Both the position numbers and the translations under genes were made by a program. Shown one piece after another: positions 24,277-49,417 of a DNA stretch of 63,817 bases. The first letter of the stretch is position 1. The number at the start of each line of letters is the position of its first letter. The DNA comes from Patescibacteria group bacterium (GTDB lineage Bacteria > Patescibacteriota > Minisyncoccia > Minisyncoccales > GWA2-38-27): positions 1 through 63,817 of the forward strand of contig JAHJSY010000041.1 in assembly GCA_018830125.1 (NCBI GenBank), given 5' to 3'. The notes under the pieces were generated by a model. That model made no database searches. It was not told where the DNA came from and saw only the letters and a list, made by a program, of their open reading frames with translations.

Positions 24277-24681
24277 GTGTTAATGCTTGAATATTCAAAA
24301 GAAGAGCTTTGGAGCTTATATAAACAAATTCCCAAAGACCTACAGCGAGCCACTTTCTCTGAACAAGTAGGCACGGATATACGGAAAATATGCGATAAAA
24401 ATGGAATTACTGATGAAGATTTAATTCTCAAAATAACTAAAAATGTTGGCTATGTTTTTTTGGGATTATTATCTCCTGATAAATTTTCCGAAGAACTTCA
24501 GCGAGATTTAAAGATGAAGAAAGAGACAGCCGATCAAATAAGTGGCGGTTTAACAAATATTGTTTTTTTACCATTAAAGAAAAGCCTTGATATATTATAT
24601 GGAATAGAAATCAAAGCCATAAAAATTACAGAACCCGCCAAAAAAGAACCAGCCATAGATATTTATAAAGAAAAAATATAA
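24277..24681 (+). CDS. hypothetical protein, first gene of the PrgI/VirB4 cluster
   Basis: 134-aa ORF, 3 nt upstream of the PrgI-like gene. No motif recognised. Confidence 0.5.
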   Translation: MLMLEYSKEELWSLYKQIPKDLQRATFSEQVGTDIRKICDKNGITDEDLILKITKNVGYVFLGLLSPDKFSEELQRDLKMKKETADQISGGLTNIVFLPLKKSLDILYGIEIKAIKITEPAKKEPAIDIYKEKI

Positions 24682-24684
24682 CTT

Positions 24685-25104
24685 ATGGAATTTACCGTCC
24701 CACAATTTATAGAGAAAGAAGCAAAAATAGTTGGACCTTTTACTTTTAAGCAGTTTATTTTTATAGGAATCGCCAGTGGTCTTTCTATTTTTATGTATTT
24801 CGTTTTTCCTTTCTTCTTATTTATAATACTTGCTATCCCCCTAATCGGAGCAGCTTTTGCTCTAGCTTTTATGAAAGTAAGCCGAACATCTCTGCCAACA
24901 TTTGTAGCTAACTTTTTTACTTTTTTCTTTAAACCAAAAATATATTTATGGGACAAAAAAACTGGCTCGCCTAAATTTTTAAAGAAAGAAAAGATTATGG
25001 CTCAAGACCTAACAAAAGAGAAAAATAAAGAAGAGGGGATAAAATTAAAGGTATCGCGCGGAAGTCGTTTAGATGAATTATTCACAAAACTAGAAACCAA
25101 ATAA
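24685..25104 (+). CDS. PrgI-like (VirB3-type) small membrane protein
   Basis: The VPQFIEKEAKIVGPFTFKQFIF start followed by two TM helices is the PrgI-family pattern. Precedes VirB4. Confidence 0.5.
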   Translation: MEFTVPQFIEKEAKIVGPFTFKQFIFIGIASGLSIFMYFVFPFFLFIILAIPLIGAAFALAFMKVSRTSLPTFVANFFTFFFKPKIYLWDKKTGSPKFLKKEKIMAQDLTKEKNKEEGIKLKVSRGSRLDELFTKLETK

Positions 25105-25109
25105 AATAT

Positions 25110-25736
25110 ATGCCTAGCACACAAGACTTTTTAAAATTTGATCAAATAAAAGAAGGCGTTGTTATCTTAAAAAATAAAGGTCTTAGGTTGATACTAATGG
25201 TTTCCTCTTTAAATTTCGCCTTAAAATCAGTTGATGAACAAAACGCTATTCTTTATCAATTCCAGAACTTTTTAAATTCTTTAGATTTCCCAGCTCAAAT
25301 TATTGTTCAATCTAGACGCTTAAATATGACTGGCTACCTAGACAAATTAACAGCTATCGAGGAAAAAGAAACTAACGAATTAATGAAAATCCAGGTTGGA
25401 GAATACAGAAAATTCATTGAACAAATAGTTGGAGGTGGTTCCATTATGCAAAAAACATTTTATGTTATCGTTCCTTTTTCTGTATCTGAAATGATGTTCG
25501 CCGAAGAAGGTAAAAGAATACCTAAGATACCTCAGTTGACCGAAGATGCATTTCAAAGGGCCAAGAACCAGCTCCTTCAACGTGCAGAATTTGTGATGCT
25601 GGGTTTAGGATCTTCTGGTTTAGAGGCTGTTCCATTAACTAATTTAGAAATTGCTGAACTTTTCTGGAGCTTACACCATCCCATAGAAGCAGAAAGAGGA
25701 TATTATCCAGAAATACCTAGTGAATTAATAGAGTAA
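25110..25736 (+). CDS. VirB4/TraC N-terminal domain-like protein (separate ORF)
   Basis: 208 aa. FDQIKEGVVILKNKGLRLILMVSSLNFALKS..AILYQFQNFLNSL resembles the N-terminal domain of Gram-positive VirB4/PrgJ. Ends 4 nt before the ATPase ORF, in a different frame. Confidence 0.5.
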   Translation: MPSTQDFLKFDQIKEGVVILKNKGLRLILMVSSLNFALKSVDEQNAILYQFQNFLNSLDFPAQIIVQSRRLNMTGYLDKLTAIEEKETNELMKIQVGEYRKFIEQIVGGGSIMQKTFYVIVPFSVSEMMFAEEGKRIPKIPQLTEDAFQRAKNQLLQRAEFVMLGLGSSGLEAVPLTNLEIAELFWSLHHPIEAERGYYPEIPSELIE

Positions 25737-25740
25737 TATT

Positions 25741-27543
25741 ATGAAAATACCTTTTTTAGACAAACTACAGGGGGAAAAAGAAATAAAAGGCGAAATGTTT
25801 GATATTAAACCAATTGGCATTGCTGACATTATTGCCCCTTCCTCTATTGAAGTCAAAAATAACTTTATTAAGATAGGCGAAAGAATGGCTAAAAGTTATT
25901 TTATTTTTTCTTATCCAAGATATTTAAGCACTGGCTGGCTTTCACCAATTATCAACTTAAATGTTCCAATGGACATTTCCTTTTATCTACATCCCGTTCC
26001 AAGCGAAATTATATTAAAAAAACTAAGAAAAAAAGTTACCGAAGTCCAAGCTCAACTAGCTGAAAATGAAGAAAAGGGACTGATCAGAGACCCAACCCTA
26101 GAAACCGCCCACCAAGACCTAGAAGAATTAAGGGATAAACTTCAAACAGCTCAGGAAAAGATGTTTCGTTTTAGTTTATATCTTACAGTTTATGGCGATA
26201 ATGAAAAAGAATTAAGAACCGTTGAGACAAATTTAAGATCTGTTTTAGAATCCAGATTAATTTATATTAAGCCAGCTCTATATCAACAAAAAGAGGGTTT
26301 TATTTGCACTTCTCCTTACAATATGGACTTGTTGATGGTAACTACCCTGATGAACACTTCTCCACTTTCCAGTACTTTCCCGTTTATTTCTAACGACTTA
26401 AGCTCTAACGAAGGAATACTTTATGGTATTAATAGACACAATAATTCTTTAGTATTGTTTGATAGATTCTCCTTGGCTAATGCCAATGAGGTTATTTTCG
26501 CCACATCGGGAGCTGGAAAATCGTTTTCTGTTAAACTTGAAGCTTTGAGATACTTAATGCTTGGTGTAGATTGTATTATTATAGATCCTGATAATGAGTA
26601 TCGCTTTTTAGCTGAGTCTGTTGGCGGTTCTTTTTTCAATATTTCTTTATCATCGGATGATCATATTAATCCTTTTGATCTAGCCAAACCAAGAGAAGAT
26701 GAAAGATCGGAAGATGTTTTGCGTTCTAATATTATTAATTTAGTTGGCTTGATGCGCGTAATGCTCGGCGGACTAACTCCTGAAGAGGATGGTATTATGG
26801 ACAGAGCTATAACCGAGGTTTATGCAGCTAAAGACATTACTATTGATAGTGACCCTAAAAAATGGGGCGTAGAACTCTCCTTTCCAACCATGAGTGATCT
26901 AGAAGATATTCTTATAACAATGGAGGGAGCTGATAGTTTAATTAAAAGAATCCAAAGATTTACCAAGGGAGTTTACGCCAACTTCTTCAACCAACAATCA
27001 AACATAAACATAAAGAATCGGCTAGTTGTTTTTGGCATAAGAGATATGGAAGATGAACTTCGTCCAATGGCTCTCTTTGTTGTTCTTAGATATATTTGGA
27101 AAACTATTACCGCCTCCCTTAAAAAGAGAATGCTTGTTATTGATGAAGCATGGCTACTCATGAAAAACGAAGAGGGTGCTTCTTTCTTATTTGGAACAGT
27201 TAAAAGAGCTAGAAAGTATTGGCTTGGGGTAACAACCATAACTCAAGATGTCAATGACTTTATGAAATCGGATTACGGTAAGCCGATTATAACTAACTCT
27301 TCGCTGGCTCTCTTAATGAAGCAGAGTCCGGCAACTATTGATACTGTTCAAAAAACATTTCATCTTACCGATGAAGAAAAGATGCTTTTATTAGAATCTC
27401 CTGTTGGAGAAGGTATCTTTTTCGCTGGAGCCAAACATGTCTTAATAAAGGTCTTAGCATCATACACAGAAGAGCAAATCATTACCACCGCTCCCGAACA
27501 ATTGAACAAAATAAAAGAAGCTAAAAGAATAGCTTCTGAATAA
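25741..27543 (+). CDS. VirB4-family type IV secretion ATPase (C-terminal ATPase part)
   Basis: Walker A ATSGAGKSFSVK, Walker B RMLVIDEAWLL. Conserved ITQDVNDF region. Confidence 0.8.
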   Translation: MKIPFLDKLQGEKEIKGEMFDIKPIGIADIIAPSSIEVKNNFIKIGERMAKSYFIFSYPRYLSTGWLSPIINLNVPMDISFYLHPVPSEIILKKLRKKVTEVQAQLAENEEKGLIRDPTLETAHQDLEELRDKLQTAQEKMFRFSLYLTVYGDNEKELRTVETNLRSVLESRLIYIKPALYQQKEGFICTSPYNMDLLMVTTLMNTSPLSSTFPFISNDLSSNEGILYGINRHNNSLVLFDRFSLANANEVIFATSGAGKSFSVKLEALRYLMLGVDCIIIDPDNEYRFLAESVGGSFFNISLSSDDHINPFDLAKPREDERSEDVLRSNIINLVGLMRVMLGGLTPEEDGIMDRAITEVYAAKDITIDSDPKKWGVELSFPTMSDLEDILITMEGADSLIKRIQRFTKGVYANFFNQQSNINIKNRLVVFGIRDMEDELRPMALFVVLRYIWKTITASLKKRMLVIDEAWLLMKNEEGASFLFGTVKRARKYWLGVTTITQDVNDFMKSDYGKPIITNSSLALLMKQSPATIDTVQKTFHLTDEEKMLLLESPVGEGIFFAGAKHVLIKVLASYTEEQIITTAPEQLNKIKEAKRIASE

Positions 27544-27545
27544 AT

Positions 27546-27863
27546 ATGGCAGACGACACAGCAGCAATTGCTATTCCTAAAAAGAAAAAGGGCTGGTTTC
27601 AAAAGATACCAGCTCATGTTTTGCTTTCCCCCACAGGAATAGTTTTAGTTATGTTCGCTCTAGTAATAGAGATCATTGATTTAATCCCATTACCAGTTGT
27701 TGACCAATTGTGGGAATTACCCCTAGAAATAGCTTTTATTGTATTTTTCTTGTTGTTAGTAAAAGATGCTTCTTTTAAATCATTGGTTATCCCTTTTATC
27801 TTAGAACGCATACCAATATTAAGCGACATTCTACCAACTTGGTTTTTAAAGATTATTATGTAG
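27546..27863 (+). CDS. small membrane protein (105 aa)
   Basis: Starts 3 nt after VirB4. Two to three hydrophobic helices. Confidence 0.5.
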   Translation: MADDTAAIAIPKKKKGWFQKIPAHVLLSPTGIVLVMFALVIEIIDLIPLPVVDQLWELPLEIAFIVFFLLLVKDASFKSLVIPFILERIPILSDILPTWFLKIIM

Positions 27864-32966: not shown

Positions 32967-33188
32967 TTGATTTGGTATACTAAAAATTACGATAATCTTT
33001 CAGACGAATCGGTTGTTGAGGTTGTGCTCAATTATGGCAATTGGCATCATTTTGAAAAATTGATTAAAGTTTTAGGGATTAAAAAAACAGCAAAAATATT
33101 TAAGAAAGAATCTAATAAAAAAAGATCTAATTTCTACCCAGAGGTTAAAAATTATTTCACTCTTTATTTTAATAAATATGCTAAATAA
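32967..33188 (+). CDS. hypothetical protein (73 aa), possibly 5'-damaged
   Basis: TTG start in the track. An out-of-frame ATG ORF (32932) ends where this one begins, which suggests a frameshift. Confidence 0.3.
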   Translation: MIWYTKNYDNLSDESVVEVVLNYGNWHHFEKLIKVLGIKKTAKIFKKESNKKRSNFYPEVKNYFTLYFNKYAK

Positions 33189-33564
33189 ATTTCATCCAGA
33201 GGTTTTTACTAAAGAATGGAATGAGTTTTTGCCCTTGATTAAATTGTTTCCCAAAGAACTTAAGAACAAGAAGCCCAATCTTTTAACCCTAGCATCCATG
33301 AAAGCGTTTGCTCTGGGTGGTAGAAATAAATGGAAAGATTATGTGGATATGTATTTTATCTTGAAGGATTATTATAAAATTAGCGATATTGTTAAAGAGG
33401 CTCAAAAAAACTTTGGTTCAGAATTCAACGAAAAATTATTTAGAACCCAACTATCTTATTTTAAAGATATCAATTATTCCGAAAAAGTTATCTATGCGGA
33501 TGGGTTTGAAGTAGATGATAAAGAAATAAGAAAATCCCTAATAGAATTTAGCCTAGAAAAATAA
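33178..33564 (+). pseudogene. AbiEii/nucleotidyltransferase-toxin-like C-terminal fragment
   Basis: LASMKAFALGGRNKWKDYVDMYFIL resembles the C-terminal part of AbiEii-type NTases. The N-terminal catalytic core is absent. Confidence 0.35.
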
Positions 33565-35070: not shown

Positions 35071-35096
35071 AAAGAGATCACTCAGGTGATCTCTTT
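35071..35096. terminator. bidirectional terminator AAAGAGATCAC-TCAG-GTGATCTCTTT
   Basis: 11-bp perfect stem between convergent genes. Confidence 0.75.
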
Positions 35097-35118: not shown

Positions 35119-37362
35119 TTATTTTTTTGTTCCTGTTCCCGTCGTAGGTGTTTCCCTTTTTTTGCTACCTCCTGCTCCCGTTGTAGGTATTTTTGTTGCC
35201 CCTTTTTCCCGACTCCCCGTTGTAGGTGTCGGTTTTACAGTTACTTTAGGTGGTTGTGTGCCTATGCCGAGTGGTCCCATTCCAAGCCCAATTGCTGGCG
35301 AGCTTGGCGTAGTTGTTGTAGGTTTTTCTTCTACATATCTTGCCCTTCTGTATCCTCTATCTTGAACTCTCTTAGAATTTAGTGCTTTAAAGCCAGCATT
35401 GCCCCCGTATTTTTGTTCAGTTTCTTTTTCGTAATCTTTCCAGATTTCTTTAAAGGTTTCTGACTCTACAGCGTTTCCATCTTTATCTGTGCGGTCAGAC
35501 AATAGTTCTGTGATTTCTGACTCACTAAATCCAGAGTTTTTGATCGTAGAATGATTTCTAGCAAATCCTGAGAAATCACCATCCATGCTTTCGTGGAATG
35601 TTTTCTGGCCATTTTTAACTTGACGATTAAGTTGTAACATTCTATCCTCTTCAAAGTTTGCCAAAACAGAACGTAACTGATCTTTATCCTTAAGCTCTTC
35701 TGGCTCCCAGTCTTTGATATGTTCTCTGGCTTCATTGGTAGCTTTTGAAACAGCCATTTCGGGAGACATTCCTTTGTAGCTACCAATGCCATACTTGGCA
35801 GCTATTTTAGCTAAACGAGGGTCTCTTCTTAAAGTAGATCCTAGCATGCCGGTATCTCCAGCATTTTTTAACAAAGGTGCCATAACTTTTCCAAATTGTT
35901 TATCGTTTACTATTTCTTCATCAGACAGACCTTTCCACCTACTAAAGCTTCTGGCTCTATTAAACAGATCTTGGGCATCATTTCCCTTAAGAAGCTTAGA
36001 ATAATATCCCATGGCTTGAGCTCCTTTAACTTTTTGAGTTAATATCTTGTCGGCTGTTTCTAGTCCCGATTCGCCCTCTGCTTCTTTAGCCGCTGCATCT
36101 ATAGCAGGCCTTAAGTTTCCAAAGTCAGAGACTGCTTTCGGAGTAGCCCACTTGAAGGCAGCAAGGGGTTTTATTCCTGTGCCTGTCGGATCCCAATTTC
36201 CAATTCTTCTTGTAAATCGACCTGTTTTTGCCGCAGCACTTCTTAACTTTCTTTCAAGCACTGGTCTTGCTCCACGTCCAACTTTTCTAGCACCTTCTTT
36301 TGCTCCCCATCCTATAGCCCCGGTTGCTCTTTTTCTGCTCCACTGGGCGGCTCTTATAGCCGATGAAGAGCCGAAAGCAGTGGCCTTAAGGCCGATAAAG
36401 AAGCCGAGATAAATAAAAGCAGCTATTACGAAATAGGGGAAAGATTGGTCAACAAGACCAACAATTGATGCTTCTGCTCCGGGGATTTTAACTTGTGATT
36501 CAAACCGCCCCTTTATTACTGGTATGGCAGTTGCTGCTAAATAAAGGAAAAAGGCCATTGGAATACCAATAATTGACCATTGAATAAGTTGTTTCCACCA
36601 CATATCCCAAACTTTTTTAGTGGCAGGAAGAATCCAAGCAACAAAGGCCAAGGGAGACAAAATAACTAAAAGCCAAATCATAATATATCTAAGGACAAAA
36701 ACAAAAACCATAAGTAAAAAAGCAAGACCAATAGAGAAATACAAACCCATCATAATAGCTCCCTTCACAAGCAACGAAAAAGGTTTTAGCGTACCCGGTC
36801 TTGTAAGTGCTCCTGCTAGTGACTCATTACTAACATCTGTTAGAGCTCCAGATATGTCATTTCTAATTCCTTGTAGGAAAAAGTTCATTGTAATGTTTGA
36901 GGCGTCAACAATTACCCCGCAAATAACCGGAGCAAAATTTACCAACAGAGCAACGACGAATAGTCTTAAAAAAGTCTTTTGAGATGCATACTCTTTTAGT
37001 TGTAAGCTAATAGAAATAGCAATAAAAATTAAAACAACAACTAATCCTAAATTAACAAAGTTTTTAGTAATGTCTAGCCCAGCAGCAACGATTGGATTAG
37101 CATTATCTCCCGATGGATTAGTATAGCTAAAACTTATAAATTCAGGACTGACTACCCAATCTAAAAGAGATCCTGCTATTTGGGCGAAACCAGCACTAAG
37201 ATAAACAAATGCTCCCATAACATGACTTACTATTGTAACCCCAAGATTATCTACAGCATCTTTAAGTGCTTGCCATTGAGCATTAGCCGAAAAAGGAATA
37301 ACAAGCACAGCGATAATTATTAAACAAGCGATAGTTATAGTTAATTGTTTTTTTATTCTCAT
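35119..37362 (-). CDS. polytopic membrane protein, VirB6/TrbL-like (putative), with hydrophilic C-terminal domain and Pro/Thr/Gly tail
   Basis: 747 aa. Signal/TM start, at least 6 hydrophobic helices in the first ~330 aa, then a soluble region ending in TTTPSS..TPTTG repeats. Last gene of the four-gene operon. Confidence 0.45.
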   Translation of the reverse strand: MRIKKQLTITIACLIIIAVLVIPFSANAQWQALKDAVDNLGVTIVSHVMGAFVYLSAGFAQIAGSLLDWVVSPEFISFSYTNPSGDNANPIVAAGLDITKNFVNLGLVVVLIFIAISISLQLKEYASQKTFLRLFVVALLVNFAPVICGVIVDASNITMNFFLQGIRNDISGALTDVSNESLAGALTRPGTLKPFSLLVKGAIMMGLYFSIGLAFLLMVFVFVLRYIMIWLLVILSPLAFVAWILPATKKVWDMWWKQLIQWSIIGIPMAFFLYLAATAIPVIKGRFESQVKIPGAEASIVGLVDQSFPYFVIAAFIYLGFFIGLKATAFGSSSAIRAAQWSRKRATGAIGWGAKEGARKVGRGARPVLERKLRSAAAKTGRFTRRIGNWDPTGTGIKPLAAFKWATPKAVSDFGNLRPAIDAAAKEAEGESGLETADKILTQKVKGAQAMGYYSKLLKGNDAQDLFNRARSFSRWKGLSDEEIVNDKQFGKVMAPLLKNAGDTGMLGSTLRRDPRLAKIAAKYGIGSYKGMSPEMAVSKATNEAREHIKDWEPEELKDKDQLRSVLANFEEDRMLQLNRQVKNGQKTFHESMDGDFSGFARNHSTIKNSGFSESEITELLSDRTDKDGNAVESETFKEIWKDYEKETEQKYGGNAGFKALNSKRVQDRGYRRARYVEEKPTTTTPSSPAIGLGMGPLGIGTQPPKVTVKPTPTTGSREKGATKIPTTGAGGSKKRETPTTGTGTKK

Positions 37363-37378
37363 ATTATGTTATGGCGTT

Positions 37379-38800
37379 TTAATATATAACATTACCCTTA
37401 ACTACGGTCATTGATTTCAGGCAGGGGATACAATCTCGTAAAAATTCTTTACTGTCAGAGAGTGCTTTTTTGCAATCTTTTCCGCATTGTCCAATCGGCT
37501 GATCAAGTAAATTGTTATCATTTTTACTAATAACTTCACATGTTTTACTATTTTCTTGATAGTTTTCTCCCGAGAACATTATTGCGAAATAGGCGTCTTC
37601 AGGATCTATTTTAACAGATCTCGTTCCTTTGAGTCTTTCTTCTTCTGAAAGATCTGGAAAAATAGTTACACTTCCACCACCCCCCATACCTCCGGATCCT
37701 GATACTGTTCTACCCTCAGCTCCTGTAGGTCCTGCTAAATTTCCCAAATCTCCTCTTGACACTTCTCTTTTATAAGAATTGGCGTTTTGTATGGAGAAGC
37801 TTAGCTCTCCACCAACTCCAGTTAAGCCAGAAGGGCAATTTTTAGTTGTACTGTGATCAAGACATTGAAATAGAATAATTCCTCTATTACTTGAACTAAT
37901 TACTCTTTCTGGTTTTTCAAAAAGAGTTACAGATTTAGCTTTGTCAAGACCTGAAAAGGGAGTGGATGTGACCGAATCGCCTCGAGATTCATAATTTGTG
38001 TCTAAAAAATTTGGAAAACATTTACCCTTCCAGTCATCTTCTTCGTGAAAAATTATTCCATAATTATATTCCCAATCATCCTTACTGTTGGGATCTTCGG
38101 GATTTTTATATATCCTTTTTGGTATTGAAAACATAAGTTTTTCATTATTATCTTTAGTGAAATTTAAATCATCTTTGTTTATATTCGCAGAAAATTTCAC
38201 CCTATAACAGGAACCATCATCATTACTCATTATATCTCTTAATTTTCTTGCCGCATTAACTCTGCCAGCTAAACTATCTGAATCAGTATCTAGATCTAAA
38301 TACGAACGGATTAAGCCTTGAACATTACCCGGATTATAATTACAAAGATATATTCCAGGAGTAATAACGGGTTCTACGGCTTTCAGGTCTTTTATAGGAC
38401 TTAATTTAGTTAAATCAGGATTTATTGAATTGAAAAGGATAAAGGCACTAACAAGAATAAGAGTTCCAAAAAGAGATGCAAAAATTCCATTTCTTGCGTT
38501 AAGAAGCTTTTCGGCACTGCCTGCGGAAAGAACATATGATATACCATTCCAAACCATAACAGAAAGAATTAAAAAACCACTAACGGCTATAGCGAACCTA
38601 AAAACATATCTAACATAATCAGGAAGACCAGTGTCAGGTTCTAGCGTTAACTCCTCACCGTCTTCTCCACGGAGAACGGGATAGACAATTTCAAGAGCTC
38701 TGCCTTCATCTGTTGAGGTTTCTGTTCCTTGGGCAAGAATAGGTGAAGCAGGGGCAAGAAGTATAAAGATAATGAATATAAGGAATAAGTTTTTTTTCAT
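37379..38800 (-). CDS. T4SS pilin-like (VirB2/TrbC-type hairpin) protein with ~330-aa Cys-containing ectodomain
   Basis: Signal peptide ..SPILAQ. LPDYVRYVFRFAIAVSGFLILSVMVWNGISYVLSAGSAEKLLNARNGIFASLFGTLILVSAFILFNSINPDL is paralogous to the 777-aa and 164-aa proteins. About 10 Cys. Start set to MKKNLF (38800). Confidence 0.6.
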   Translation of the reverse strand: MKKNLFLIFIIFILLAPASPILAQGTETSTDEGRALEIVYPVLRGEDGEELTLEPDTGLPDYVRYVFRFAIAVSGFLILSVMVWNGISYVLSAGSAEKLLNARNGIFASLFGTLILVSAFILFNSINPDLTKLSPIKDLKAVEPVITPGIYLCNYNPGNVQGLIRSYLDLDTDSDSLAGRVNAARKLRDIMSNDDGSCYRVKFSANINKDDLNFTKDNNEKLMFSIPKRIYKNPEDPNSKDDWEYNYGIIFHEEDDWKGKCFPNFLDTNYESRGDSVTSTPFSGLDKAKSVTLFEKPERVISSSNRGIILFQCLDHSTTKNCPSGLTGVGGELSFSIQNANSYKREVSRGDLGNLAGPTGAEGRTVSGSGGMGGGGSVTIFPDLSEEERLKGTRSVKIDPEDAYFAIMFSGENYQENSKTCEVISKNDNNLLDQPIGQCGKDCKKALSDSKEFLRDCIPCLKSMTVVKGNVIY

Positions 38801-38804
38801 TGTT

Positions 38805-41534
38805 TTAATACAAAACATCAAGTATTTCATTTGAGCTATTAATAATGCTTTGATTGGTGTTTCCTATTTCTCCTATATTAACACGAATATCGTCCATTGG
38901 GTAAGGGTTTCCTCCTGAAGGCGGGACACTTTCATATCCGGGATAAAGACCTGACAGATCAAGATCAGCATCAAGAGATGGCATTTGGAATCCAGGGAGA
39001 TCAAATCTTTTTTGTTTAGTGTAACTCATGTCGCCTAATGGAATAGAAGGAAGCTGATAATCTATGGGATTAGTCAGTGGAATTTTCTTTAAGTCTTCTG
39101 TCCAAGGAATATCTATTCTTCTAGCTATTTTAGATAGTTCAGCATTTACGGTATCCATGGGGATATTGATTTTGTCTAAAATAGCATAGGCATCCGGAAT
39201 TTTGAACATTCCATTCTCTACAACTGTACGGGATACACTTTCAGCTACTGCTTCTTCTACTTTTCTTCGGATATCATTCAACCGTTCATGGATAGATTCT
39301 GTAATTAGATCTTTAAGCACGCTAGCGGCACTATCAAGCTGATTTTGAATTTGTGATTGAATAGTGTTGTCAAGCACGTTCTGAATGCGACTCATTTTAC
39401 TAGCTACATTTTGATTTAAAGAATCATCAATGTTTTTACAAAACTTATCAACATCCATAAATCTATTATCACATAAATCAGGTATTTCTGGAAATCTTGG
39501 CCAAGAAAAATAATAATCAGGGAAACCAATATCTAGTGGAATACCAGAAATTCCCGCACTAACACATCCGTTAGGAATAGAAATAATACTAGAGACTAAC
39601 CCTAAAAGCATATTCCCCATATCAATATCTATACCCATAAAATTTAAAATAACTTCAGGCTGTGGAAGGGAAATTTCTGGTAAATCCATATCTAAACTAA
39701 GCAGATCGGTTAAATCAATTTCAGGCATTGGAATAGGAATGGACGGGAACTTAATATCATTCATTTTTATTGATAGTGGATCAAGCTGGGGGCCATTAGG
39801 AATAGCAGGCATATCAGCACGGATAGGTGGAATATCAATATCAGGGATTCTTAAAGAAGGATATTGAAAGTCTACCTTCAAAGAAGAAAGATCTCTTTTG
39901 CACATATTTAAATTACAGGGCTTTAAGTCAGGAAGAATTAAATCTTCAAAAATAAGGCTCGGAAGGCGCACCCTTAAAAAAGGCATAAAGTTGAAAGAAG
40001 GCAGTCTGACATCAGGAATTATTGTGTCAGGAAGTTCTATTCTTGGGAATAGCGTTGAATTAATAGAGGGCAAGGAAGGACAATCTAGCCTAATGCTATT
40101 TTGGGAATGATTAGAAATGGTTTGTGGAGCACAGGATGTTGATGGCGTCTGATATGTTTGAGCTCCAGGATTTTCAAGCGTTCTATTAAACAAAGGAATA
40201 AATTTACACGGTTCAGGAATGTTCATTTCTCCGGCTTGTTTTAATTCAGAGCATTTGTTTCTAAGAGTGTTGAGGTTGCAAATTGGTGGTGCTGTTTCTC
40301 CTTCTGATCTAAATAAGTCCTGACATTTTGCGTTAACATTAGTTATTTCATAGCATATTTCAGGAGGACGAGCACAACCAGTTCCCATACAGGTAGAATG
40401 TCTTTGTCGTAAAATTTGGCATTGATCAATAATCGTAAGATGAACAGAATCTTCGTTAAAGCATTGTTCGTATCTTTCTTGGACAGGATTATTATTGGCG
40501 TCTGTTAAGCCAGGCAGTTCTTGGCATCTATCAGATAACCAAGATAATGTTTGTAAAAACCATTCTAAATCAACATATTGATTGTTCTCAGGAGTATCTT
40601 CCTTTGTACATTGATATGGGCTAGCATCTAATTGGGTACATGAAAAGCTAGCTGGAGGAATTCCGGGAATATCTGGATAGGGAGGATGAAAAACGATTGG
40701 ATCCAGAGAAAGATCTGACACTTGATCAATTGGAATATCAGGAAAGGCAATATTAATATCTTGCAAATCAATATTAAAATCACCTATATTAGCAGCATCT
40801 GACATTTGGATGCTATCTGGCAAATTAAGCCCAACTTCGTCAATTGCTATTCTTCCTAAGTTTAAATCGCCTAAACGAACCCCTATTTCAAAGTTCATGT
40901 TTATTGGATTTTGTTCTCCACCACTTCCAAAAACACAAGCGTTGACTACTGGAATAGTATTTGTATTACACTGAGCTTGACACTGGTTTTTAGCTGAATA
41001 AGCATCATTATCTAATATCTCAACATTTTCTAAAGCTGAATCGGTAACGCCTTCGCTTGAAGAAATTATATTATTTAAATTAGACTCTAATACTATTGCT
41101 TGATCTTCATCCATTCTCTCCAGCTCTTCGGCTAAGCCAGTATCCATTTCTGTTTGAAGTAGTTCTTTTAAGAAATTCATTTGTTGCGCTTTATCTTTAA
41201 CTGCTAGTTTGGTTTTCTCTAACTCCTCTCCATTATTACAAGTTTCACCAAAAACGCCGACACTCCCTTCTCTTATACACTGCGATGAAGCGTTAGTACA
41301 ACTACATTGAGAAGCTTGGTTGCTTAATTTTTCATTGAAAAATTCCAAATCCTGAGTAGTTTGACTCAACTCACTAATAATATATTTTAATCTATTAGGA
41401 TAATGAGGATAATATTCTAGCCATTGGGCAAAAATATCAGAGCTGGTACCTGATTTTTCTAACAATGGAATAAAAACATTAATCAAAACCGCCAAAACTA
41501 AAATGCCTGGTATGATAAACTTTTTCATTTTCAT
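38805..41534 (-). CDS. N-terminally anchored, cysteine-rich giant surface protein (909 aa)
   Basis: One TM helix (FIIPGILVLAVLINVFIPLL). About 27 Cys by my count. Degenerate P-(D/S)-I / IP repeats in the middle (IPDIDIPPIRADMPAIP, PSIPIPMPEIDL). Start ATG 41534 lies 1 nt after the upstream stop. Confidence 0.55.
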   Translation of the reverse strand: MKMKKFIIPGILVLAVLINVFIPLLEKSGTSSDIFAQWLEYYPHYPNRLKYIISELSQTTQDLEFFNEKLSNQASQCSCTNASSQCIREGSVGVFGETCNNGEELEKTKLAVKDKAQQMNFLKELLQTEMDTGLAEELERMDEDQAIVLESNLNNIISSSEGVTDSALENVEILDNDAYSAKNQCQAQCNTNTIPVVNACVFGSGGEQNPINMNFEIGVRLGDLNLGRIAIDEVGLNLPDSIQMSDAANIGDFNIDLQDINIAFPDIPIDQVSDLSLDPIVFHPPYPDIPGIPPASFSCTQLDASPYQCTKEDTPENNQYVDLEWFLQTLSWLSDRCQELPGLTDANNNPVQERYEQCFNEDSVHLTIIDQCQILRQRHSTCMGTGCARPPEICYEITNVNAKCQDLFRSEGETAPPICNLNTLRNKCSELKQAGEMNIPEPCKFIPLFNRTLENPGAQTYQTPSTSCAPQTISNHSQNSIRLDCPSLPSINSTLFPRIELPDTIIPDVRLPSFNFMPFLRVRLPSLIFEDLILPDLKPCNLNMCKRDLSSLKVDFQYPSLRIPDIDIPPIRADMPAIPNGPQLDPLSIKMNDIKFPSIPIPMPEIDLTDLLSLDMDLPEISLPQPEVILNFMGIDIDMGNMLLGLVSSIISIPNGCVSAGISGIPLDIGFPDYYFSWPRFPEIPDLCDNRFMDVDKFCKNIDDSLNQNVASKMSRIQNVLDNTIQSQIQNQLDSAASVLKDLITESIHERLNDIRRKVEEAVAESVSRTVVENGMFKIPDAYAILDKINIPMDTVNAELSKIARRIDIPWTEDLKKIPLTNPIDYQLPSIPLGDMSYTKQKRFDLPGFQMPSLDADLDLSGLYPGYESVPPSGGNPYPMDDIRVNIGEIGNTNQSIINSSNEILDVLY

Positions 41535-41535
41535 T

Positions 41536-43869
41536 TTAAAAATCACTTGTTTCACAATCATATAATTCTCCAATATCTATATGGATATGAGTTATTTTAT
41601 CTAAAACATATGCTTCGGAAGAACATTTTTTAGCTGTATCTATTATTTCGTCTATGTATTTTCTTTGAAGTTCGGAAGACATATCAAAATCCACAGCATA
41701 GGATTCTTCTGTATCCCGACAAAAAGTGCCTCCGTAATGAGCCGAAACTTTCATTTTGTTTTGTTCTATTCCATAAATATGAGAACAATCTCTTGGGTCT
41801 TTGGGACTGAAACCCCATTCACATTTTCCAGTATATAGCTTTTCATCAGAAATAGAAGAGATTAATCCTATTATTTCTTCCGTTTCTTCTTCTGCTTCTT
41901 GATACTTATCTAATCCCTGACGCATACAAGAAAGAAGCTGTTTAAGTGGTTTAGAAGCATCGTTTTCGTATTGATCATGATTTCTTACACTGCTTGTGCA
42001 GTCAAATCCCTTAGGACAGCCGTCTTCTGATGATAGTACAGAATGTTCTTTGAGGGGAACAATATATAGAGGGTCTGAATCAGACGAAATTGGTAAGGGA
42101 GGAGTAGCTGATGGTGAACAACAATAAACATCTCTTGGATTACAGCTAGTCATAATTGTACCGCTGGGTCCATAATTGCCCTTGGCACCTTCACAGCTTA
42201 ATAAAATAAATTCTGGATTGTTAATATTAGGATCAAAACAGACGCGAGTAGCAGCATCAAGATTATGAAGATTATAGGGGTTTTTAGGTCCTTCTGCGTG
42301 GTATAATACGGCCGGGAATATTTTCTTTATTTCTGCAATAACTCCAGTATCAATTTCAAGAATTTTGTCTTCGGTTTCTTTTATTTCTTCCGATTTTTTG
42401 GTGATTTCTTCTACTGGACAGGCATCACCACTGCATCCCTGAATAGACTGAAGACATTTGGATCGGCAAAAGACAGCCATTGGCCCACATGGTATCGGGC
42501 TACAGCATCTGTACCACGGGTTAGGTATGCAACTACAAGATGGCTCACAATAAGTTCTATTGCATTGTGATACAAGTTCGGTCATCTCTTGCACTTGTTG
42601 AGCCATTTTTTCAGTTAAGCGAGATAATTCTTCTAATTTGAAGATAGCAATAATTGCTAACTCTCTGAGTTGATCAATCGTTTCTCCTGTTGGTATTCTG
42701 GTATGGCAACTAATTAATTGAATCTCATACGGAGAAGCTACTTTTTCAGAAGATGGAGTTTCTTCGGAAAGCTCTTTTATTTTCTGGGGAGTATATGGAG
42801 CATCATAAATGGTTCCTCCCACAGAACAATAAAAGGTTAAAGCCTCATCTCCGGCTTCTTTGTAACCAGATATTTCAATAACTTGATTTCCTAATTCTTC
42901 AAATTGTTGCTTAGCTAACAAGAGATCGTTGCGTGTCATAAACTCCTGGTTTTGGGTTCGGCAAGAAATAATTTCTCCTTCTATTTCTTGGAATTTTCTT
43001 AACTCTTCTCTTAATAATTCTTTATGCTCGGAAACCTTTTTTTCATATTTGGAAAGAGTCTTTATTTTCTCCCGGTCTATATTCAGAACCTTTTTTATTC
43101 TTTCTCTGGCTGTCGGATTATCGTCATCATTTTCACAAGGATCTCCTGAACAACCAATGGGCATAGAACCCGATTGGGGTTTTGTGCAAAGAGCTTTGGT
43201 GTTTTCACATCGACACTCATCGGTTACCGTTTTTAGATATTTATTTAAGTCCGAAATTCTATTAAGTTTATCATTCTCCAGGTTGGGATCGTCCACATCT
43301 ATTTCCTCTTTAAGAAAACCTTCAAAGTCTGTAATAAGAGTTTCTAATTCTTCGGTTCTTTCTTCTTCCCAAACAGTGGCTGTTGTCATAGCACTTTTTA
43401 ATGGTAGTTCAGCTACAATCCAAGTAAGTACTTCTCTCTCTGGTGCGGTATAAGTATTGATACTGCCTGGATCAACTGGAGTTAATGGACCAAATTCAAG
43501 AATCAATAATTGAGGATTAATACTGACCAAAATTAAATAAGAAGAAAATAGAATAACTATTCCCAAGAGAGCACCAGTTAACTGATCCTTAGCAGCCTTT
43601 AACTTGGATGGATCGGTACCCGAAGTTATATATAATATGCCTCCATAAATTAAAGAGGCTAGAGCTAGGAAAGCTGAGATGGCAATAGCAAAGTTGAATA
43701 TATATTTTACATAAGCAGGTAATCCGTCTTGAACTGTCTCAGGAGCTTTACCTATAATATCTGGATAATCAATTTCCAGGTCTTGGGCTAAGACGAGAGA
43801 ATATATAGAAATAGCAAACAAAAAAGCAATAAAAGAAAATAAGAAAAGTTTTTTAGTTTTCCCCAACAT
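41536..43869 (-). CDS. T4SS pilin-like (VirB2/TrbC-type hairpin) protein with ~640-aa cysteine-rich ectodomain
   Basis: Signal peptide ..SLVLAQ. LPAYVKYIFNFAIAISAFLALASLIYGGILYITSGTDPSKLKAAKDQLTGALLGIVILFSSYLILVSINPQL. About 32 Cys by my count. C-terminal SAH..AVDFD..HIHID motif string. Confidence 0.6.
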   Translation of the reverse strand: MLGKTKKLFLFSFIAFLFAISIYSLVLAQDLEIDYPDIIGKAPETVQDGLPAYVKYIFNFAIAISAFLALASLIYGGILYITSGTDPSKLKAAKDQLTGALLGIVILFSSYLILVSINPQLLILEFGPLTPVDPGSINTYTAPEREVLTWIVAELPLKSAMTTATVWEEERTEELETLITDFEGFLKEEIDVDDPNLENDKLNRISDLNKYLKTVTDECRCENTKALCTKPQSGSMPIGCSGDPCENDDDNPTARERIKKVLNIDREKIKTLSKYEKKVSEHKELLREELRKFQEIEGEIISCRTQNQEFMTRNDLLLAKQQFEELGNQVIEISGYKEAGDEALTFYCSVGGTIYDAPYTPQKIKELSEETPSSEKVASPYEIQLISCHTRIPTGETIDQLRELAIIAIFKLEELSRLTEKMAQQVQEMTELVSQCNRTYCEPSCSCIPNPWYRCCSPIPCGPMAVFCRSKCLQSIQGCSGDACPVEEITKKSEEIKETEDKILEIDTGVIAEIKKIFPAVLYHAEGPKNPYNLHNLDAATRVCFDPNINNPEFILLSCEGAKGNYGPSGTIMTSCNPRDVYCCSPSATPPLPISSDSDPLYIVPLKEHSVLSSEDGCPKGFDCTSSVRNHDQYENDASKPLKQLLSCMRQGLDKYQEAEEETEEIIGLISSISDEKLYTGKCEWGFSPKDPRDCSHIYGIEQNKMKVSAHYGGTFCRDTEESYAVDFDMSSELQRKYIDEIIDTAKKCSSEAYVLDKITHIHIDIGELYDCETSDF

Positions 43870-43963
43870 TAAATAATTATACCACCCCCACTCAACTAGT
43901 GCAATAATAATTAAAATTGCTTTATTGTGTATTTCATATATGTTAAAATATAATTGTGAGAAT

Positions 43964-44034
43964 GGGCGGGTAGTGAAACGGCATCACAAGTAACTTATAC
44001 CTATTTATTGTGGGTTCGAATCCCATCCCGTCCA
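43964..44034 (+). tRNA. tRNA, probable anticodon TAT (Ile)
   Basis: Hand-folded. Acceptor GGGCGGG/CCCGTCC, D arm GTGA-AACGGCA-TCAC. Anticodon arm AGTAA-CTTATAC-CTATT has one A-C mismatch. T arm GTGGG-TTCGAAT-CCCAT. No encoded CCA. Confidence 0.6.
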
Positions 44035-44058
44035 CACTCACCTTTGACTTTTGCACTA

Positions 44059-45026: not shown

Positions 45027-45072
45027 TAAAAGTGACCGAGTCACTTTTCGCTAAAAGTGACTCGGTCACTTT
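45027..45072. repeat. two tandem palindromes AAAAGTGAC(C/T)(G/C)(A/G)GTCACTTT
   Basis: 45027..45047 and 45054..45072, between divergent rsmA and the M23 peptidase gene. Same element as 33664. Confidence 0.85.
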
Positions 45073-45131
45073 ATTCTGAGGTGTGGAAAAGGGGGTTGAC
45101 TGGATATTTCCGAAAAGGTAGTATAAATAAA

Positions 45132-46154
45132 ATGAGTAATAAGATAAGTTCTTATTTAGGTAAATTATTGATCGTTTTAGCCGTTTTAATCTTCGGCTTC
45201 TTTATTTTCAGCTCAAATTCGGTGTTAAGATCTCTTGAAGATTTTTCTCTTTTAGCTTCAGCTGTGGACTCGGGTCAGGAATTATTTGTCGCAGGATCTA
45301 GTAATATTGCTAGAGAGTCCCCTAATATGAATTTTGTTCAAAATAATAGCTTAGTTGCCGTCGCTCCTCCAATGACGATTGATGTTAATACTTTGGGAAG
45401 CATGATCGGTGGTATTGAAGAAGACGATGGTACTCGGAAAGAAATTCTTGAATATATTGTTGAGCCAGATGACACTCTTTCAACAATTGCCGACAAGTTT
45501 GATATTTCTTTAAGTACAATTTTAATAGCTAATGATCTCGGGTCTAAGTCAACCATTAAGCCTGGTCAAAAACTTATTATTCTTCCAGTATCGGGTGTTA
45601 TTTATCATGTTAAAAATGGAGATACATTGGGTGATATTGCTAAAACTTATAAAGGAAAAACAACGGAAATAATTGCTGTTAATAATCTTTCTGGCGAGGG
45701 TAACATATTCATCGGAGATATTTTAGTTATTCCTAATGGAAAAATACCGGTCTCTGGGTCAAGTACCTACGCTGCTAATATCCCAGTTGGCTCAAGTTAT
45801 TTTATTGCTCCTTTAGCCAGATATACAATTACCCAAGGACTTCATTGGTATAATGCTATTGATTTTGCTGCTCCTTGTGGAACTTCAATATATGCCACTG
45901 CCGCTGGAGTAATTCAGAGAGTAGAATATGGATGGAACGGAGGAGCGGGAAATTATCTTAGAATTTTACATCCTAACGGAGTTGTTACAATGTATGGACA
46001 TATCCAAAAGAGCTTAGTCGTTCAAGGTCAAAATGTTTCCCAAGGAGAAAGAATTGCTTTAGTCGGCGGAAAACCAGGAACAACTGGTGCTGGAAAATCA
46101 ACTGGATGTCATGTCCATTTTGACGTCCGTGGAGCTCGCAACCCCTTTCAATAA
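45132..46154 (+). CDS. LysM-LysM-M23 peptidoglycan endopeptidase
   Basis: TM anchor and two LysM repeats (YIVEPDDTLSTIADKF.., YHVKNGDTLGDIAKTY..). M23 motifs HWYNAIDF and GCHVHFDV. Start moved to ATG 45132 because the track start lies inside the palindromes. Confidence 0.85.
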   Translation: MSNKISSYLGKLLIVLAVLIFGFFIFSSNSVLRSLEDFSLLASAVDSGQELFVAGSSNIARESPNMNFVQNNSLVAVAPPMTIDVNTLGSMIGGIEEDDGTRKEILEYIVEPDDTLSTIADKFDISLSTILIANDLGSKSTIKPGQKLIILPVSGVIYHVKNGDTLGDIAKTYKGKTTEIIAVNNLSGEGNIFIGDILVIPNGKIPVSGSSTYAANIPVGSSYFIAPLARYTITQGLHWYNAIDFAAPCGTSIYATAAGVIQRVEYGWNGGAGNYLRILHPNGVVTMYGHIQKSLVVQGQNVSQGERIALVGGKPGTTGAGKSTGCHVHFDVRGARNPFQ

Positions 46155-46157: not shown

Positions 46158-46652
46158 ATGAAAAAAGCATTTTTAATATTCTTAATTGGTGGGCTTTTTC
46201 TTCCAAGCATTGCTTTAGCTCAACCTTTGGTTCATTGTAGTCTGACTGGCGACGGTAAACCAGCTTGTACATTCTGCGACCTTTTTGTTTTATTTGATAA
46301 TATAACAACCTTTTTATTTAAAGATATCATACCTATTTTAGCAGGTTTGATGATAGCCGTTGGCGGAGTATATTATCTTATTAGTCGAGGTGAGCCTGAA
46401 AAACTAGCTAGTGCCAAGAAGATATTTTCATCAGTTGCCATAGGGCTTTTAATAGCTTACAGTGCTTGGTTAATTGTTAATACGTTTTTTATGGTGGTTG
46501 GGATATCAAGATGGGATGGCTTTGACGGCGGTTGGTGGCAAATCAATTGCCCCACCACATCATCATCTTCGGAATCATCAGCACCTACTACCGATGAAAT
46601 AGACAAGGCAATAGAGCAATATGAAGATGTATTTAAGGTAAAACATTATTAA
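46158..46652 (+). CDS. short T4SS pilin-like (VirB2/TrbC-type) protein
   Basis: Signal peptide ..SIALAQ. IIPILAGLMIAVGGVYYLISRGEPEKLASAKKIFSSVAIGLLIAYSAWLIVNTFF is paralogous to the hairpin of the 777-aa and 473-aa proteins. Starts 4 nt after the M23 gene. Confidence 0.65.
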   Translation: MKKAFLIFLIGGLFLPSIALAQPLVHCSLTGDGKPACTFCDLFVLFDNITTFLFKDIIPILAGLMIAVGGVYYLISRGEPEKLASAKKIFSSVAIGLLIAYSAWLIVNTFFMVVGISRWDGFDGGWWQINCPTTSSSSESSAPTTDEIDKAIEQYEDVFKVKHY

Positions 46653-46708: not shown

Positions 46709-46781
46709 GCCCCTATAACTCAATTGGTAGAGTAACGGCCTCTTAAGCCGGTTGTTCCAGGTTCAAGTCCTGGTGGGGGCA
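46709..46781 (+). tRNA. tRNA-Lys (anticodon CTT)
   Basis: Hand-folded cloverleaf. Acceptor GCCCCTA/TGGGGGC, anticodon loop CTCTTAA, T arm CCAGG-TTCAAGT-CCTGG. No encoded CCA. Confidence 0.9.
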
Positions 46782-46816
46782 CAAATAAAAAAAATATTGA
46801 GGTTGAACCTCAATAG

Positions 46817-49361: not shown

Positions 49362-49417
49362 TGAAAGAGGGAAGCAAAGCTTGGGCGAGTAAAGCTTAGC
49401 TTTAAACATCTCGCTAG

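Follow-up and report, generated by a model that had tools for sequence, protein, structure and literature searches.

Patescibacteria carry type IV secretion systems (T4SSs) whose VirB4 ATPases form a clade related to MPF-FATA, and in which a TrsD-like N-terminal VirB4 fragment, PrgI/VirB3 and abundant VirB6 proteins are found (Quinonero-Coronel et al. 2025, PMC12102498). In the same survey VirB2-like pilins were detected through the Pfam family T4SS_pilin (PF18895), together with pilin arrays and frequent M23/LysM hydrolases, and the loci were found to adjoin dnaA, dnaN, ksgA and rnpA with almost no relaxases, which a minority of genomes carry (PMC12102498). In Southlakia epibionticum, the T4SS cluster and the pilins belonging to it proved to be essential (Wang et al. 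2023, PMC10633639), a finding taken up in a 2025 review that also describes "extended VirB6" proteins (PMC12857230). Among secretion machines, the T4SS alone has been shown to be indispensable to a patescibacterium growing on its host, its cargo and the epibiont's passage through two cell walls being unsolved (PMC10633639, PMC12857230), and no pilus has so far been demonstrated for any Patescibacteria T4SS (PMC12857230). Here, a four-gene operon, g1 to g4, is described on the minus strand of a 63,817-nucleotide stretch of DNA (hereafter the window) from a Patescibacteria group bacterium, contig JAHJSY010000041.1. Two of its products, g1 and g3, join a predicted VirB2-like pilin hairpin to a large Cys-rich ectodomain, and g1 ends in a head domain that likely belongs to the Hedgehog/DD-peptidase superfamily. 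On balance, the operon probably encodes peptidoglycan peptidases that are anchored by a pilin hairpin, and possibly displayed on a pilus, as part of a non-conjugative T4SS of the Patescibacteria type.

The region 35119-43869 is filled by four minus-strand open reading frames (ORFs), at the coordinates that the original prediction, made from the sequence alone, had given them (Table 1). With the start codons chosen there, the same gaps of 1, 4 and 16 nt separate g1/g2, g2/g3 and g3/g4; the longest-ORF starts give overlaps instead (g2 from a TTG at 41573, g3 from an ATG at 38830). The proteins contain 32, 26, 10 and 2 Cys, respectively, so that the earlier lengths and the counts for g1 and g3 hold, and that for g2 is 26 instead of about 27. 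In hydropathy profiles g1 and g3 each start with a signal-peptide-like N-terminus followed by two hydrophobic helices, g2 has a single N-terminal hydrophobic segment, either anchor or signal, and g4 is polytopic, which agrees with the membrane topologies first proposed.

The two helices of g1 span residues 49-82 and 87-117 in the AlphaFold2 model, with a short Lys-rich loop between them. By BLASTP, g1 and g3 align over 101 aa with 40% identity (E 1e-19), and their family profiles match in hhalign with 99.9% probability (E 4e-34, 122 columns); this similarity is confined to the signal peptide, an LEIxYP motif and the hairpin, with none beyond. A hidden Markov model of the hairpin finds exactly three matches among the window ORFs, namely g1, g3 and a 164-aa protein encoded on the other side of ksgA, which bears out the paralogy claimed for these three hairpins. 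PF18895, whose gathering score is 26.6 bits, matches g1 at 28.4 bits (residues 57-113) and the 164-aa protein well above that score (Table 1); the latter also matches TrbC/VirB2 at E 1.4e-4, under that family's cut-off. For g3 alone the PF18895 score is 11.9 bits, and about half of the 18 g3 homologue clusters carry a precomputed PF18895 annotation. The signal peptide and two-helix hairpin of VirB2/TrbC pilins are found in both proteins, in g3 by way of its match to the g1 profile, whereas the small size of those pilins is not, g1 and g3 having large ectodomains on chains of 777 and 473 aa. By these profile matches, the hairpins of g1 and g3 are VirB2-like T4SS-pilin domains, as had been supposed. 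After signal-peptide cleavage, a VirB2-type topology would place both ends of the hairpin outside the membrane and the loop inside. In L004 (5576-6793, minus strand), L005 and L010, all Nealsonbacteria RIFOXY, the pilin beside the M23-LysM hydrolase has 404-405 aa and not 164, and is a third modular pilin, with an extension that is uncharacterised.

The ectodomain of g1 consists of a stalk and a head. The full-length AlphaFold2 model, built from a 43-sequence alignment, has a mean predicted local distance difference test score (pLDDT) of 80.3 and a predicted template modelling score (pTM) of 0.72. In the stalk, long helices (254-305, 394-433 and 486-504) alternate with small Cys-knotted β elements, and the majority of the 32 Cys are kept across the family alignment. 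These Cys would form disulfides, which are plausible outside the cell because Candidate Phyla Radiation (CPR) bacteria encode MdbA-like oxidoreductases and VKOR (10.1101/335083). The head, modelled alone, reaches a pLDDT of 90.1 and a pTM of 0.88 and contains eight Cys; its key residues are S674-D675, S709-x-H711-Y-G-G, Y724-A-V-D727, D757 and H761-x-H763, which fall in the conserved motifs SISD, S-x-H-Y-G-G, Y-A-V-D and H-x-H.

A profile search of 1.84 billion representative proteins (E<=1e-3) gathered at least 245 protein clusters with this head. The members are mostly 200-450 aa long with the head at the C-terminus, and 95 of the 118 scanned also contain T4SS_pilin, the few other partner domains being SLT, Glucosaminidase and 3D. 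In L031, a compact CPR T4SS cluster, a 269-aa pilin-plus-head gene lies one small gene downstream of TrbL_3, PrgI, TraC-like and VirB4 genes, and in L032 a 350-aa one heads a tandem pilin array. Across 118-133 diverse sequences H711, D727 and H763 are invariant or nearly so, and the wider family conserves both His of the H-x-H together with a preceding Glu (consensus E-G-N-H-x-H); in g1 the H-x-H is H761-I-H763, preceded by the acidic D757. In one cluster (P0108), three pilin-plus-head proteins (P0225, P0226 and P0228) that share 90% identity with CPR counterparts bear the database name "pilin [Candidatus Pacearchaeota archaeon]", which would make their source a DPANN archaeon, and the cluster is also deposited under Candidatus Pacebacteria/Paceibacterota; either the bin is mislabelled or the family occurs in an archaeal episymbiont.

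The assignment of the head to a superfamily was reached through an unannotated 100-aa ORF of Microviridae phages, first seen as an insignificant tblastn match (E 7) in phage genomes and built into a family of seven members before profiles were compared. The head family matches this family in hhalign with 95.7% probability (E 8.7e-9; 0.25% for a reversed-sequence control), the aligned core being S-x-H-Y-x-G, A-x-D and H-x-H. The Microviridae profile in turn matches the N-domain structures of Sonic, Desert and Indian hedgehog at E of about 2e-6 (Sonic 1.8e-6), and its members match HH_signal (six of seven, best 5e-6) and Peptidase_M15_3 (five of seven, best 1e-3). A direct hhalign comparison of the head with the Sonic hedgehog (Shh) N-domain, ShhN, gave 61.7% and E 7.7e-5; the core of the ShhN sequence used was confirmed by the alignment of the PDB match. 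In Shh the zinc ligands are H141, D148 and H183 and the catalytic residue is E177 (PMC6027127); H711, D727 and H763 of g1 align with the three ligands, and D757 and H761 lie in the E177 region. A parallel from outside this chain is SEML1_0007 of Southlakia, an essential 1113-aa protein encoded beside VirB4, whose residues 951-1105 are classed as Hedgehog/DD-peptidase in a structure-based supplementary table (PMC10633639) and which lends the assignment independent support. For SEML1_0006, from the same cluster, a lysozyme-like and a cysteine-proteinase domain are listed there (PMC10633639). We thus consider it likely that the head belongs to the Hedgehog/DD-peptidase superfamily, as a divergent branch rich in Cys, and it would act as a zinc peptidase. 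The Microviridae ORFs themselves (100-113 aa; L023 389-691, which is PV067925.1 4084-4386, and relatives L025-L030) come from human- or animal-associated phages and are unannotated or named "hypothetical protein"; by profile they are a miniature Hedgehog/DD-peptidase domain, probably a wall peptidase of the phage.

The head can be replaced. Distant g1 homologues have Peptidase_C39_2 (P0035-37) or NlpC/P60 (P0038-39) in place of the last 170-190 residues, and shorter relatives (P0040-44) end without a head. One variant of each kind (C39_2 in L013, NlpC/P60 in L014) is the first gene of the same four-gene operon. Because heads of LAS type (lysostaphin, D-Ala-D-Ala metallopeptidase, sonic hedgehog), NlpC/P60 and C39-like type are interchangeable, the conserved part appears as a delivery scaffold and the variable part as a wall-active tool. 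An N-terminal SLT-like lysozyme suspected ahead of the hairpin in P0091 (960 aa) and P0097 (1045 aa) was not confirmed by Pfam at E<=1e-3.

Several results weigh against pilin-anchored peptidases as the product of this operon. The PF18895 score of g1 barely clears the gathering score, TrbC (PF04956) never rose above its cut-off for the hairpins in Pfam scans, and Foldseek against the PDB returned no VirB2 or TraA structure for the g1 hairpin. The same search with full-length g1 gave insignificant helical matches (best E 2.3) and no analogue of VirB2, VirB5, VirB8, VirB9 or VirB10. For the head, neither phmmer nor a profile of the g1-type heads had a significant match among PDB sequences, Pfam returned nothing relevant for 20 heads, NCBIfam gave a lone MepK match in one member (E 0.12), and a Foldseek search of the PDB with the confident head model retrieved no LAS enzyme, the best matches being designed proteins (E 0.11). 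A weak hint in favour comes from BFVD, where the top three Foldseek matches include a protein named "Peptidase" and a Microviridae protein annotated "Sonic hedgehog", at probability 0.75, E 0.14-0.24 and TM-scores of 0.22-0.41. The link to the superfamily is transitive, through the Microviridae family, and the chain depends on a 49-column core alignment. The T5-endolysin (M15C) group was tried as another link and, at 0.6% in hhalign against a family of verified sequences, is not the linking subfamily. Roles given to g2 and g3 are guesses because neither has a recognisable fold, the call on g4 is weak, and a subunit with an ectodomain of about 650 aa is hard to fit in a VirB2-type helical filament.

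That steric difficulty also speaks for the strongest alternative, in which the hairpin would be a plain two-helix membrane anchor and g1, perhaps with g2 and g3, would remodel the cell's own wall or assist T4SS assembly without ever entering a pilus, in the manner of the VirB1-like hydrolases that Gram-positive T4SSs tether to the membrane. In those hydrolases a glycosidase is joined to a CHAP or NlpC/P60 domain (PMC12102498), and the NlpC/P60 and C39_2 heads of g1 orthologues, the large hydrolases beside VirB4 in the Southlakia cluster (PMC10633639) and the lack of another evident VirB1 homologue in the operon all fit such a role. However, the anchor in 95 of the 118 head-bearing proteins is T4SS_pilin and not a generic transmembrane helix, a head-bearing pilin leads the array of plain pilins in L032, the plain pilin already has a distinct LysM-M23 hydrolase as its partner, and the long helical stalk of the AlphaFold2 model suggests projection off the membrane. 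We regard a mere anchor as an unlikely but serious alternative to pilin-anchored, possibly pilus-displayed peptidases.

The head may also have lost its peptidase activity, so that g1 and g3 would serve as adhesins at the tip, functionally akin to VirB5 or PrgB, and bind peptides or glycans of the host wall. The canonical H-x(6)-D zinc motif is absent, H711 and D727 being 15 residues apart because of a 9-residue, Cys-containing insertion; within the g1 subfamily the first His of the H-x-H is not invariant and the preceding acidic residue is Asp instead of the catalytic Glu. From this odd spacing, variable His and Asp-for-Glu replacement it follows that the head could be a binding module or a pseudo-enzyme. 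Hedgehog is itself mainly a ligand, with the motif lost in Drosophila Hh (PMC6027127), and the adhesin role is vacant, as adhesins such as PrgB went undetected in Patescibacteria T4SS loci (PMC12102498). The near-invariance of H711, D727 and H763 over 118-133 diverse sequences and the retention, in the wider family, of both His of the H-x-H with the preceding Glu speak against such a loss, as does the nature of the replacement heads, which are bona fide hydrolase families and not binding domains. A non-catalytic head seems improbable to us, clearly more so than a plain anchor, and the catalytic reading is kept below.

The operon sits in a chromosomal region that contains the rest of a T4SS. 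A cytoplasmic and inner-membrane module lies 7.6 kb from g4, beyond the replication-origin genes, and consists, in order, of orf134, a PrgI/VirB3-like gene, a TraC/TrsD-like fragment (orf208), VirB4 and a 105-aa membrane protein (orf105; Table 1). Compared with the compact L031 cluster, VirB4 is 56% identical to its counterpart and orf208 matches the PF26593 TraC-like gene with E 5e-45. The gene for a LysM-M23 hydrolase ends 3 nt upstream of the 164-aa pilin gene, and this pair, M23 then pilin, is kept in relatives. The window represents the chromosome around the replication origin, with rnpA, yidC, jag, dnaA and dnaN at 28-32.5 kb and further housekeeping genes for a V/A-ATPase, RuvB, tyrosyl-tRNA synthetase, a class A penicillin-binding protein, KsgA, polynucleotide phosphorylase (PNPase) and the CCA enzyme. 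VirB4, the TraC/TrsD fragment with PrgI and VirB2-like pilins, near dnaA and with no relaxase or coupling protein (T4CP) nearby, point to a T4SS of the Patescibacteria type.

Synteny was compared in long contigs and in nine GTDB species representatives, found with a 13-sequence alignment. The order g1-g2-g3-g4 is kept in all nine species and in every long contig, at protein identities of 31-85%, and the usual layout is M23-LysM plus pilin, ksgA, g1-g4, then, further on, dnaN and dnaA. In L014 the four genes run directly into PrgI and a TraC/TrsD-like gene, and in L011 and L013 the operon abuts homologues of orf134 and orf105, which flank the VirB4 module here; the proposed tie between the operon and the split VirB4/PrgI module is borne out by these arrangements. 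Since the ksgA-dnaN position is kept across species at such identities, vertical inheritance is indicated. The G+C content is 35.6-36.4% in g1-g3, 35.4% in VirB4 and 34.2% on average in the window; there is therefore no compositional anomaly, higher values being seen only in the g4 tail (42.4%) and in orf373 next to it (43.5%), against the 40-42% of two lines of sequence spot-counted in the original prediction. A reading of the operon as a horizontally transferred, compositional island was ruled out by these background values. Pfam scans of 36 ORFs, most of the larger ones of the window, found no relaxase, T4CP or integrase, in agreement with the absence of the first two that had been noted and with the non-conjugative function deduced from it, a view already published (PMC12102498). 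VirB4, PrgI, VirB6-like and pilin genes are also the core of conjugation machines, and a minority of Patescibacteria genomes carry relaxases (PMC12102498), but with none of the three mobility genes among the scanned ORFs, housekeeping flanks, background G+C and a vertically inherited position, it is very improbable that the locus belongs to an integrated element, conjugative or mobilisable, whose proteins mediate DNA transfer.

Regarding the other products of the operon, most of the 26 Cys of g2 are invariant in its family; a helical segment and a conserved C-terminal PSGGNPYP motif are also present. Its central tract of IP/PD repeats, described in the original prediction, is real but compositional and loosely repeated: residues 480-640 contain 16% Pro, 15% Leu, 13% Ile and 11% Asp, 18 [ILFMV]P dipeptides and loose (I/L)P(D/S) motifs, and the family alignment shows the tract to be conserved. 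Residues 64-149 of g2 match residues 206-301 of g1 in a comparison of the families (hhalign 72%, E 3.4e-5, 87 columns; BLASTP marginal, E 0.012), which hints at a shared stalk module. Pfam, NCBIfam and PDB sequences gave no match for g2. The g3 ectodomain, of about 340 aa, has ten Cys and is conserved in its family; nothing corresponds to it among PDB sequences, and profile comparisons found it unrelated to the g1 ectodomain or to g2. Some motifs of this ectodomain tentatively recall the Greek keys of beta-gamma-crystallins. The GGMGGGGS stretch described as a linker of g3 does exist, but it is an insertion found in this protein alone and is not a conserved feature. The g2 and g3 families are limited to the Nealsonbacteria-like clade that carries the operon, and the compact L031 cluster is without them.

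The polytopic g4 has about six hydrophobic stretches within residues 1-335, followed by a polar tail. A Pfam scan of g4 itself returned no match and its profile nothing usable among PDB sequences, whereas a precomputed TrbL_3 (PF19590) match exists, TrbL (PF04610) is matched in four of nine orthologues (best E 3e-4) and TrbL_4 in two of nine, and g4 is 22% identical (E 2e-24) to the TrbL_3 gene of L031. The earlier description of g4 as a VirB6/TrbL-like protein with a soluble tail thus stands for its topology; the evidence for the family is modest, and the VirB6/TrbL call is a weak one. In architecture, and by analogy, g4 is an "extended VirB6".

These elements can be combined into a working model. 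The four genes would provide the membrane-channel and extracellular part of a chromosomal, non-conjugative Patescibacteria-type T4SS, with g4 as a VirB6-like channel or assembly platform and the plain 164-aa pilin, co-transcribed with the M23-LysM hydrolase, as the bulk subunit. After signal cleavage the hairpins of g1 and g3 would insert in the membrane, with the long C-terminal ectodomain exposed at the surface of the cell, and would then dock at the VirB6/VirB4 platform, or a few copies would join the 164-aa pilin in a pilus-like fibre, at its base or its tip. In g1, a disulfide-stapled helical stalk would be tipped by the Hedgehog/DD-peptidase-type zinc-peptidase head, which would cut peptidoglycan stem peptides, either for the passage of the apparatus through the cell's own wall, as VirB1 does, or, projected on the stalk, for opening the wall of the host. 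The g2 protein may pair with g1 in the stalk, its Pro-rich tract spanning the wall, and the g3 ectodomain may act in adhesion. Incorporation into a pilus, the pairing of g1 with g2 and the target, own or host wall, are what we infer. More tentatively, a T4SS fibre or stalk of VirB2-like subunits carrying wall-cutting enzymes could be a drill that opens host peptidoglycan.

Were this so, an enzymatic drill would explain why epibiotic growth needs a T4SS and pilins, and swappable hydrolase heads in a conserved operon could follow the wall chemistry of the host and hence host range. The head family would then form a branch of the Hedgehog/DD-peptidase superfamily that is specific to pilins and had gone unrecognised. 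VirB2 pilins have until now been regarded as small structural subunits; if their hairpin routinely carries enzyme heads, a 165-residue domain with three candidate zinc ligands gives concrete testable hypotheses. Adding the head as a domain family, which current Pfam and NCBIfam models miss, could also improve the annotation of thousands of CPR proteins now named "hypothetical" or "pilin". Heads serving as assembly factors in the cell's own wall would be more ordinary, yet would fill the "missing VirB1" gap of most Patescibacteria T4SS loci. The apparatus is not a novel one, as had been proposed, since it is the same as the published Patescibacteria T4SS (PMC12102498, PMC10633639, PMC12857230). 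Those three papers and the other literature searched mention neither a pilin hairpin fused to large Cys-rich ectodomains nor what the C-terminal head is and that it can be exchanged. Modular pilins of this kind, a Hedgehog/DD-peptidase-like head family specific to pilins and the swapping of heads seem not to have been described before.

The boundaries of the operon were read from sequence patterns. A perfect extended -10 element, TGGTATAAT, is a candidate promoter element and ends 7 nt upstream of the g1 ATG (43867-43869). Because of this distance, which provides no room for a Shine-Dalgarno sequence between the element and the start codon, the g1 transcript is suggested to be leaderless or nearly so. 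A plus-strand tRNA-Ile gene parts g1 from ksgA, and g1 therefore needs a promoter of its own. At the other end, an 11-bp palindromic hairpin with T-runs on both strands, between the convergent g4 and orf373, is a candidate bidirectional terminator of the operon. The boundary elements are compatible with one four-gene, possibly leaderless transcription unit.

Table 1. Window coordinates of the operon, its protein regions and the associated T4SS genes.
Feature	Position	Strand	Basis
g1, modular pilin, 777 aa	41536..43869	-	ORF; 46 homologue clusters; NCBI name "pilin"
g1 pilin hairpin, residues ~49-121	43507..43725	-	PF18895, AlphaFold2 helices, hhalign to g3 family
g1 stalk, residues ~145-600	42070..43437	-	AlphaFold2 secondary structure, conserved Cys columns
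g1 head, residues 613-777, likely divergent Hedgehog/DD-peptidase-like (LAS)	41539..42033	-	AlphaFold2, hhalign chain
g2, Cys-rich protein, 909 aa	38805..41534	-	ORF; 13 homologue clusters
g2 CxC...C...C and long helix, residues 64-149	41088..41345	-	hhalign of g2 with g1 family
g2 Pro/Ile/Leu/Asp-rich tract, residues 480-640	39615..40097	-	composition, dipeptide counts, family alignment
g3, second modular pilin, 473 aa	37379..38800	-	ORF; 18 homologue clusters
g3 hairpin, residues ~58-133	38402-38629	-	profile match to g1 family hairpin
g4, putative VirB6/TrbL-like polytopic protein, 747 aa	35119..37362	-	hydropathy; TrbL-type matches
g4 conserved membrane domain, residues 1-335	36358-37362	-	hydropathy, conservation
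g4 polar tail, ~410 aa	35119-36357	-	hydropathy; variable among close relatives
Candidate extended -10 promoter element TGGTATAAT	43876..43884	-	read from sequence; putative function
Palindromic hairpin, 11-bp stem, T-runs on both strands	35071..35096	.	consensus scan, pattern match only
tRNA-Ile, anticodon TAT (UAU)	43964-44035	+	lies between ksgA and g1
T4SS cytoplasmic/inner-membrane module	24277..27863	+	Pfam and L031 comparisons
PrgI/VirB3-like	24685-25104	+	Pfam PrgI E 9.8e-8
TraC/TrsD-like N-terminal VirB4 fragment (orf208, 208 aa)	25110-25736	+	42% identical to L031 gene
VirB4 ATPase	25741-27543	+	P-loop_TraG E 1.3e-25
LysM-LysM-M23 peptidoglycan hydrolase	45057..46154	+	LysM E 4.5e-25; Peptidase_M23 E 3.7e-23
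Plain T4SS pilin, 164 aa, candidate major subunit	46158..46652	+	PF18895 42.7 bits

Other features of the window were recorded alongside. Between dnaN and g4, orf373 (33923-35044, plus strand), which has the highest G+C of the region, encodes one transmembrane segment, and an orthologue has a faint Band_7/SPFH match; it is kept beside g4 in L006, L007, L008 and L014 and may be part of the T4SS neighbourhood. A 128-aa ORF at 33178-33564 (plus strand) has a weak AbiEii toxin match (E 0.0075), and because L002 has ParE/YafQ-type pairs at the same spot, the slot between dnaN and the operon appears to be a variable toxin-antitoxin site. A PilB/GspE-type ATPase (15024-16469, plus strand; T2SSE E 7e-120) indicates that type IV pilus machinery, separate from the T4SS, is also encoded. 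A 720-aa protein (54688-56850, plus strand) whose sole recognised domain is a C-terminal SH3_3 is another large, conserved protein of the clade, possibly at the cell surface; L002 and L004 have large unannotated ORFs (826 and 944 aa) at the same position after the PNPase gene. AUA codons are usually decoded in bacteria by a lysidine-modified CAU tRNA, and from the UAU anticodon of the tRNA-Ile it follows that this lineage may be without TilS. Finally, two tRNA-Lys(CTT) calls (46709-46782 and 49408-49479, plus strand) share 61 of the last 62 bases of the second, which has a differing 5' acceptor arm and an Rfam match limited to model positions 8-63. The roughly 2.7 kb between them contains a NUDIX gene (47334-47840) and an HTH-Fic gene (48435-49361), with no integrase seen, and the pair looks like an att-type duplication left by an element integrated in tRNA-Lys.

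Compared with known systems, the locus is closest to the Southlakia T4SS (SEML1_0006-0019), with which it shares VirB4, a TraC/TrsD-like fragment, PrgI, VirB2-like pilins and peptidoglycan hydrolases, a chromosomal position near dnaA, dnaN, ksgA and rnpA without a relaxase and, if the weak call on g4 holds, a VirB6-like protein; a large protein with a C-terminal domain classed as Hedgehog/DD-peptidase there is the likely counterpart of the g1 head architecture. Unlike in the published Patescibacteria T4SSs, the genes here are in two blocks around the origin genes, and a single plain pilin plus two pilins fused to Cys-rich ectodomains of 340-650 aa take the place of an array of small pilins; g2 and g3 homologues (13 and 18 clusters, nine GTDB species) occur only in a narrow clade. 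As in extended VirB6 proteins (PMC12857230), g4 combines at least five hydrophobic helices with a large C-proximal hydrophilic domain, although its TrbL/VirB6 sequence similarity is marginal and its tail is poorly conserved in close relatives. With VirB2, TrbC and TraA pilins, g1 and g3 share the two-helix hydrophobic hairpin after a signal peptide and the basic loop, the TrbC match being weak; those pilins have about 70-120 residues and no extra domain, whereas g1 adds 650 and g3 340 extracellular residues.

VirB1-like hydrolases of Gram-positive T4SSs include CwlT of ICEBs1, PrgK of pCF10, TraG of pIP501 and TcpG of pCW3. Like them, g1 is membrane-tethered, T4SS-encoded and modular, and its orthologues have NlpC/P60 or CHAP-type modules; unlike them, its tether is a pilin hairpin and not a single transmembrane helix, it has a long Cys-rich helical stalk, it is without a glycosidase module, and its head would be of LAS and not of papain type. 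Modular type IV pilins with bulky C-terminal modules, such as PilB and PilC of Streptococcus sanguinis, offer a parallel in function only, in that a polymerisation module displays a globular domain as a minor subunit; there is no homology, type IV pili having a single N-terminal helix, a prepilin peptidase and a PilB ATPase. With the LAS zinc peptidases (MEROPS M15, bacterial Hh-like proteins and ShhN) the head aligns in its S-x-H...A-x-D...[DE]-x(2,3)-H-x-H core, and, as in bacterial Hh-like proteins, where the domain lies at the C-terminus of larger proteins (PMC6027127), it is the C-terminal domain of a larger protein. It differs from those peptidases in its His-Asp spacing (15 versus 6), in its six to eight conserved Cys, in being missed by Pfam, NCBIfam and Foldseek against the PDB, and in being nearly always fused to a pilin.

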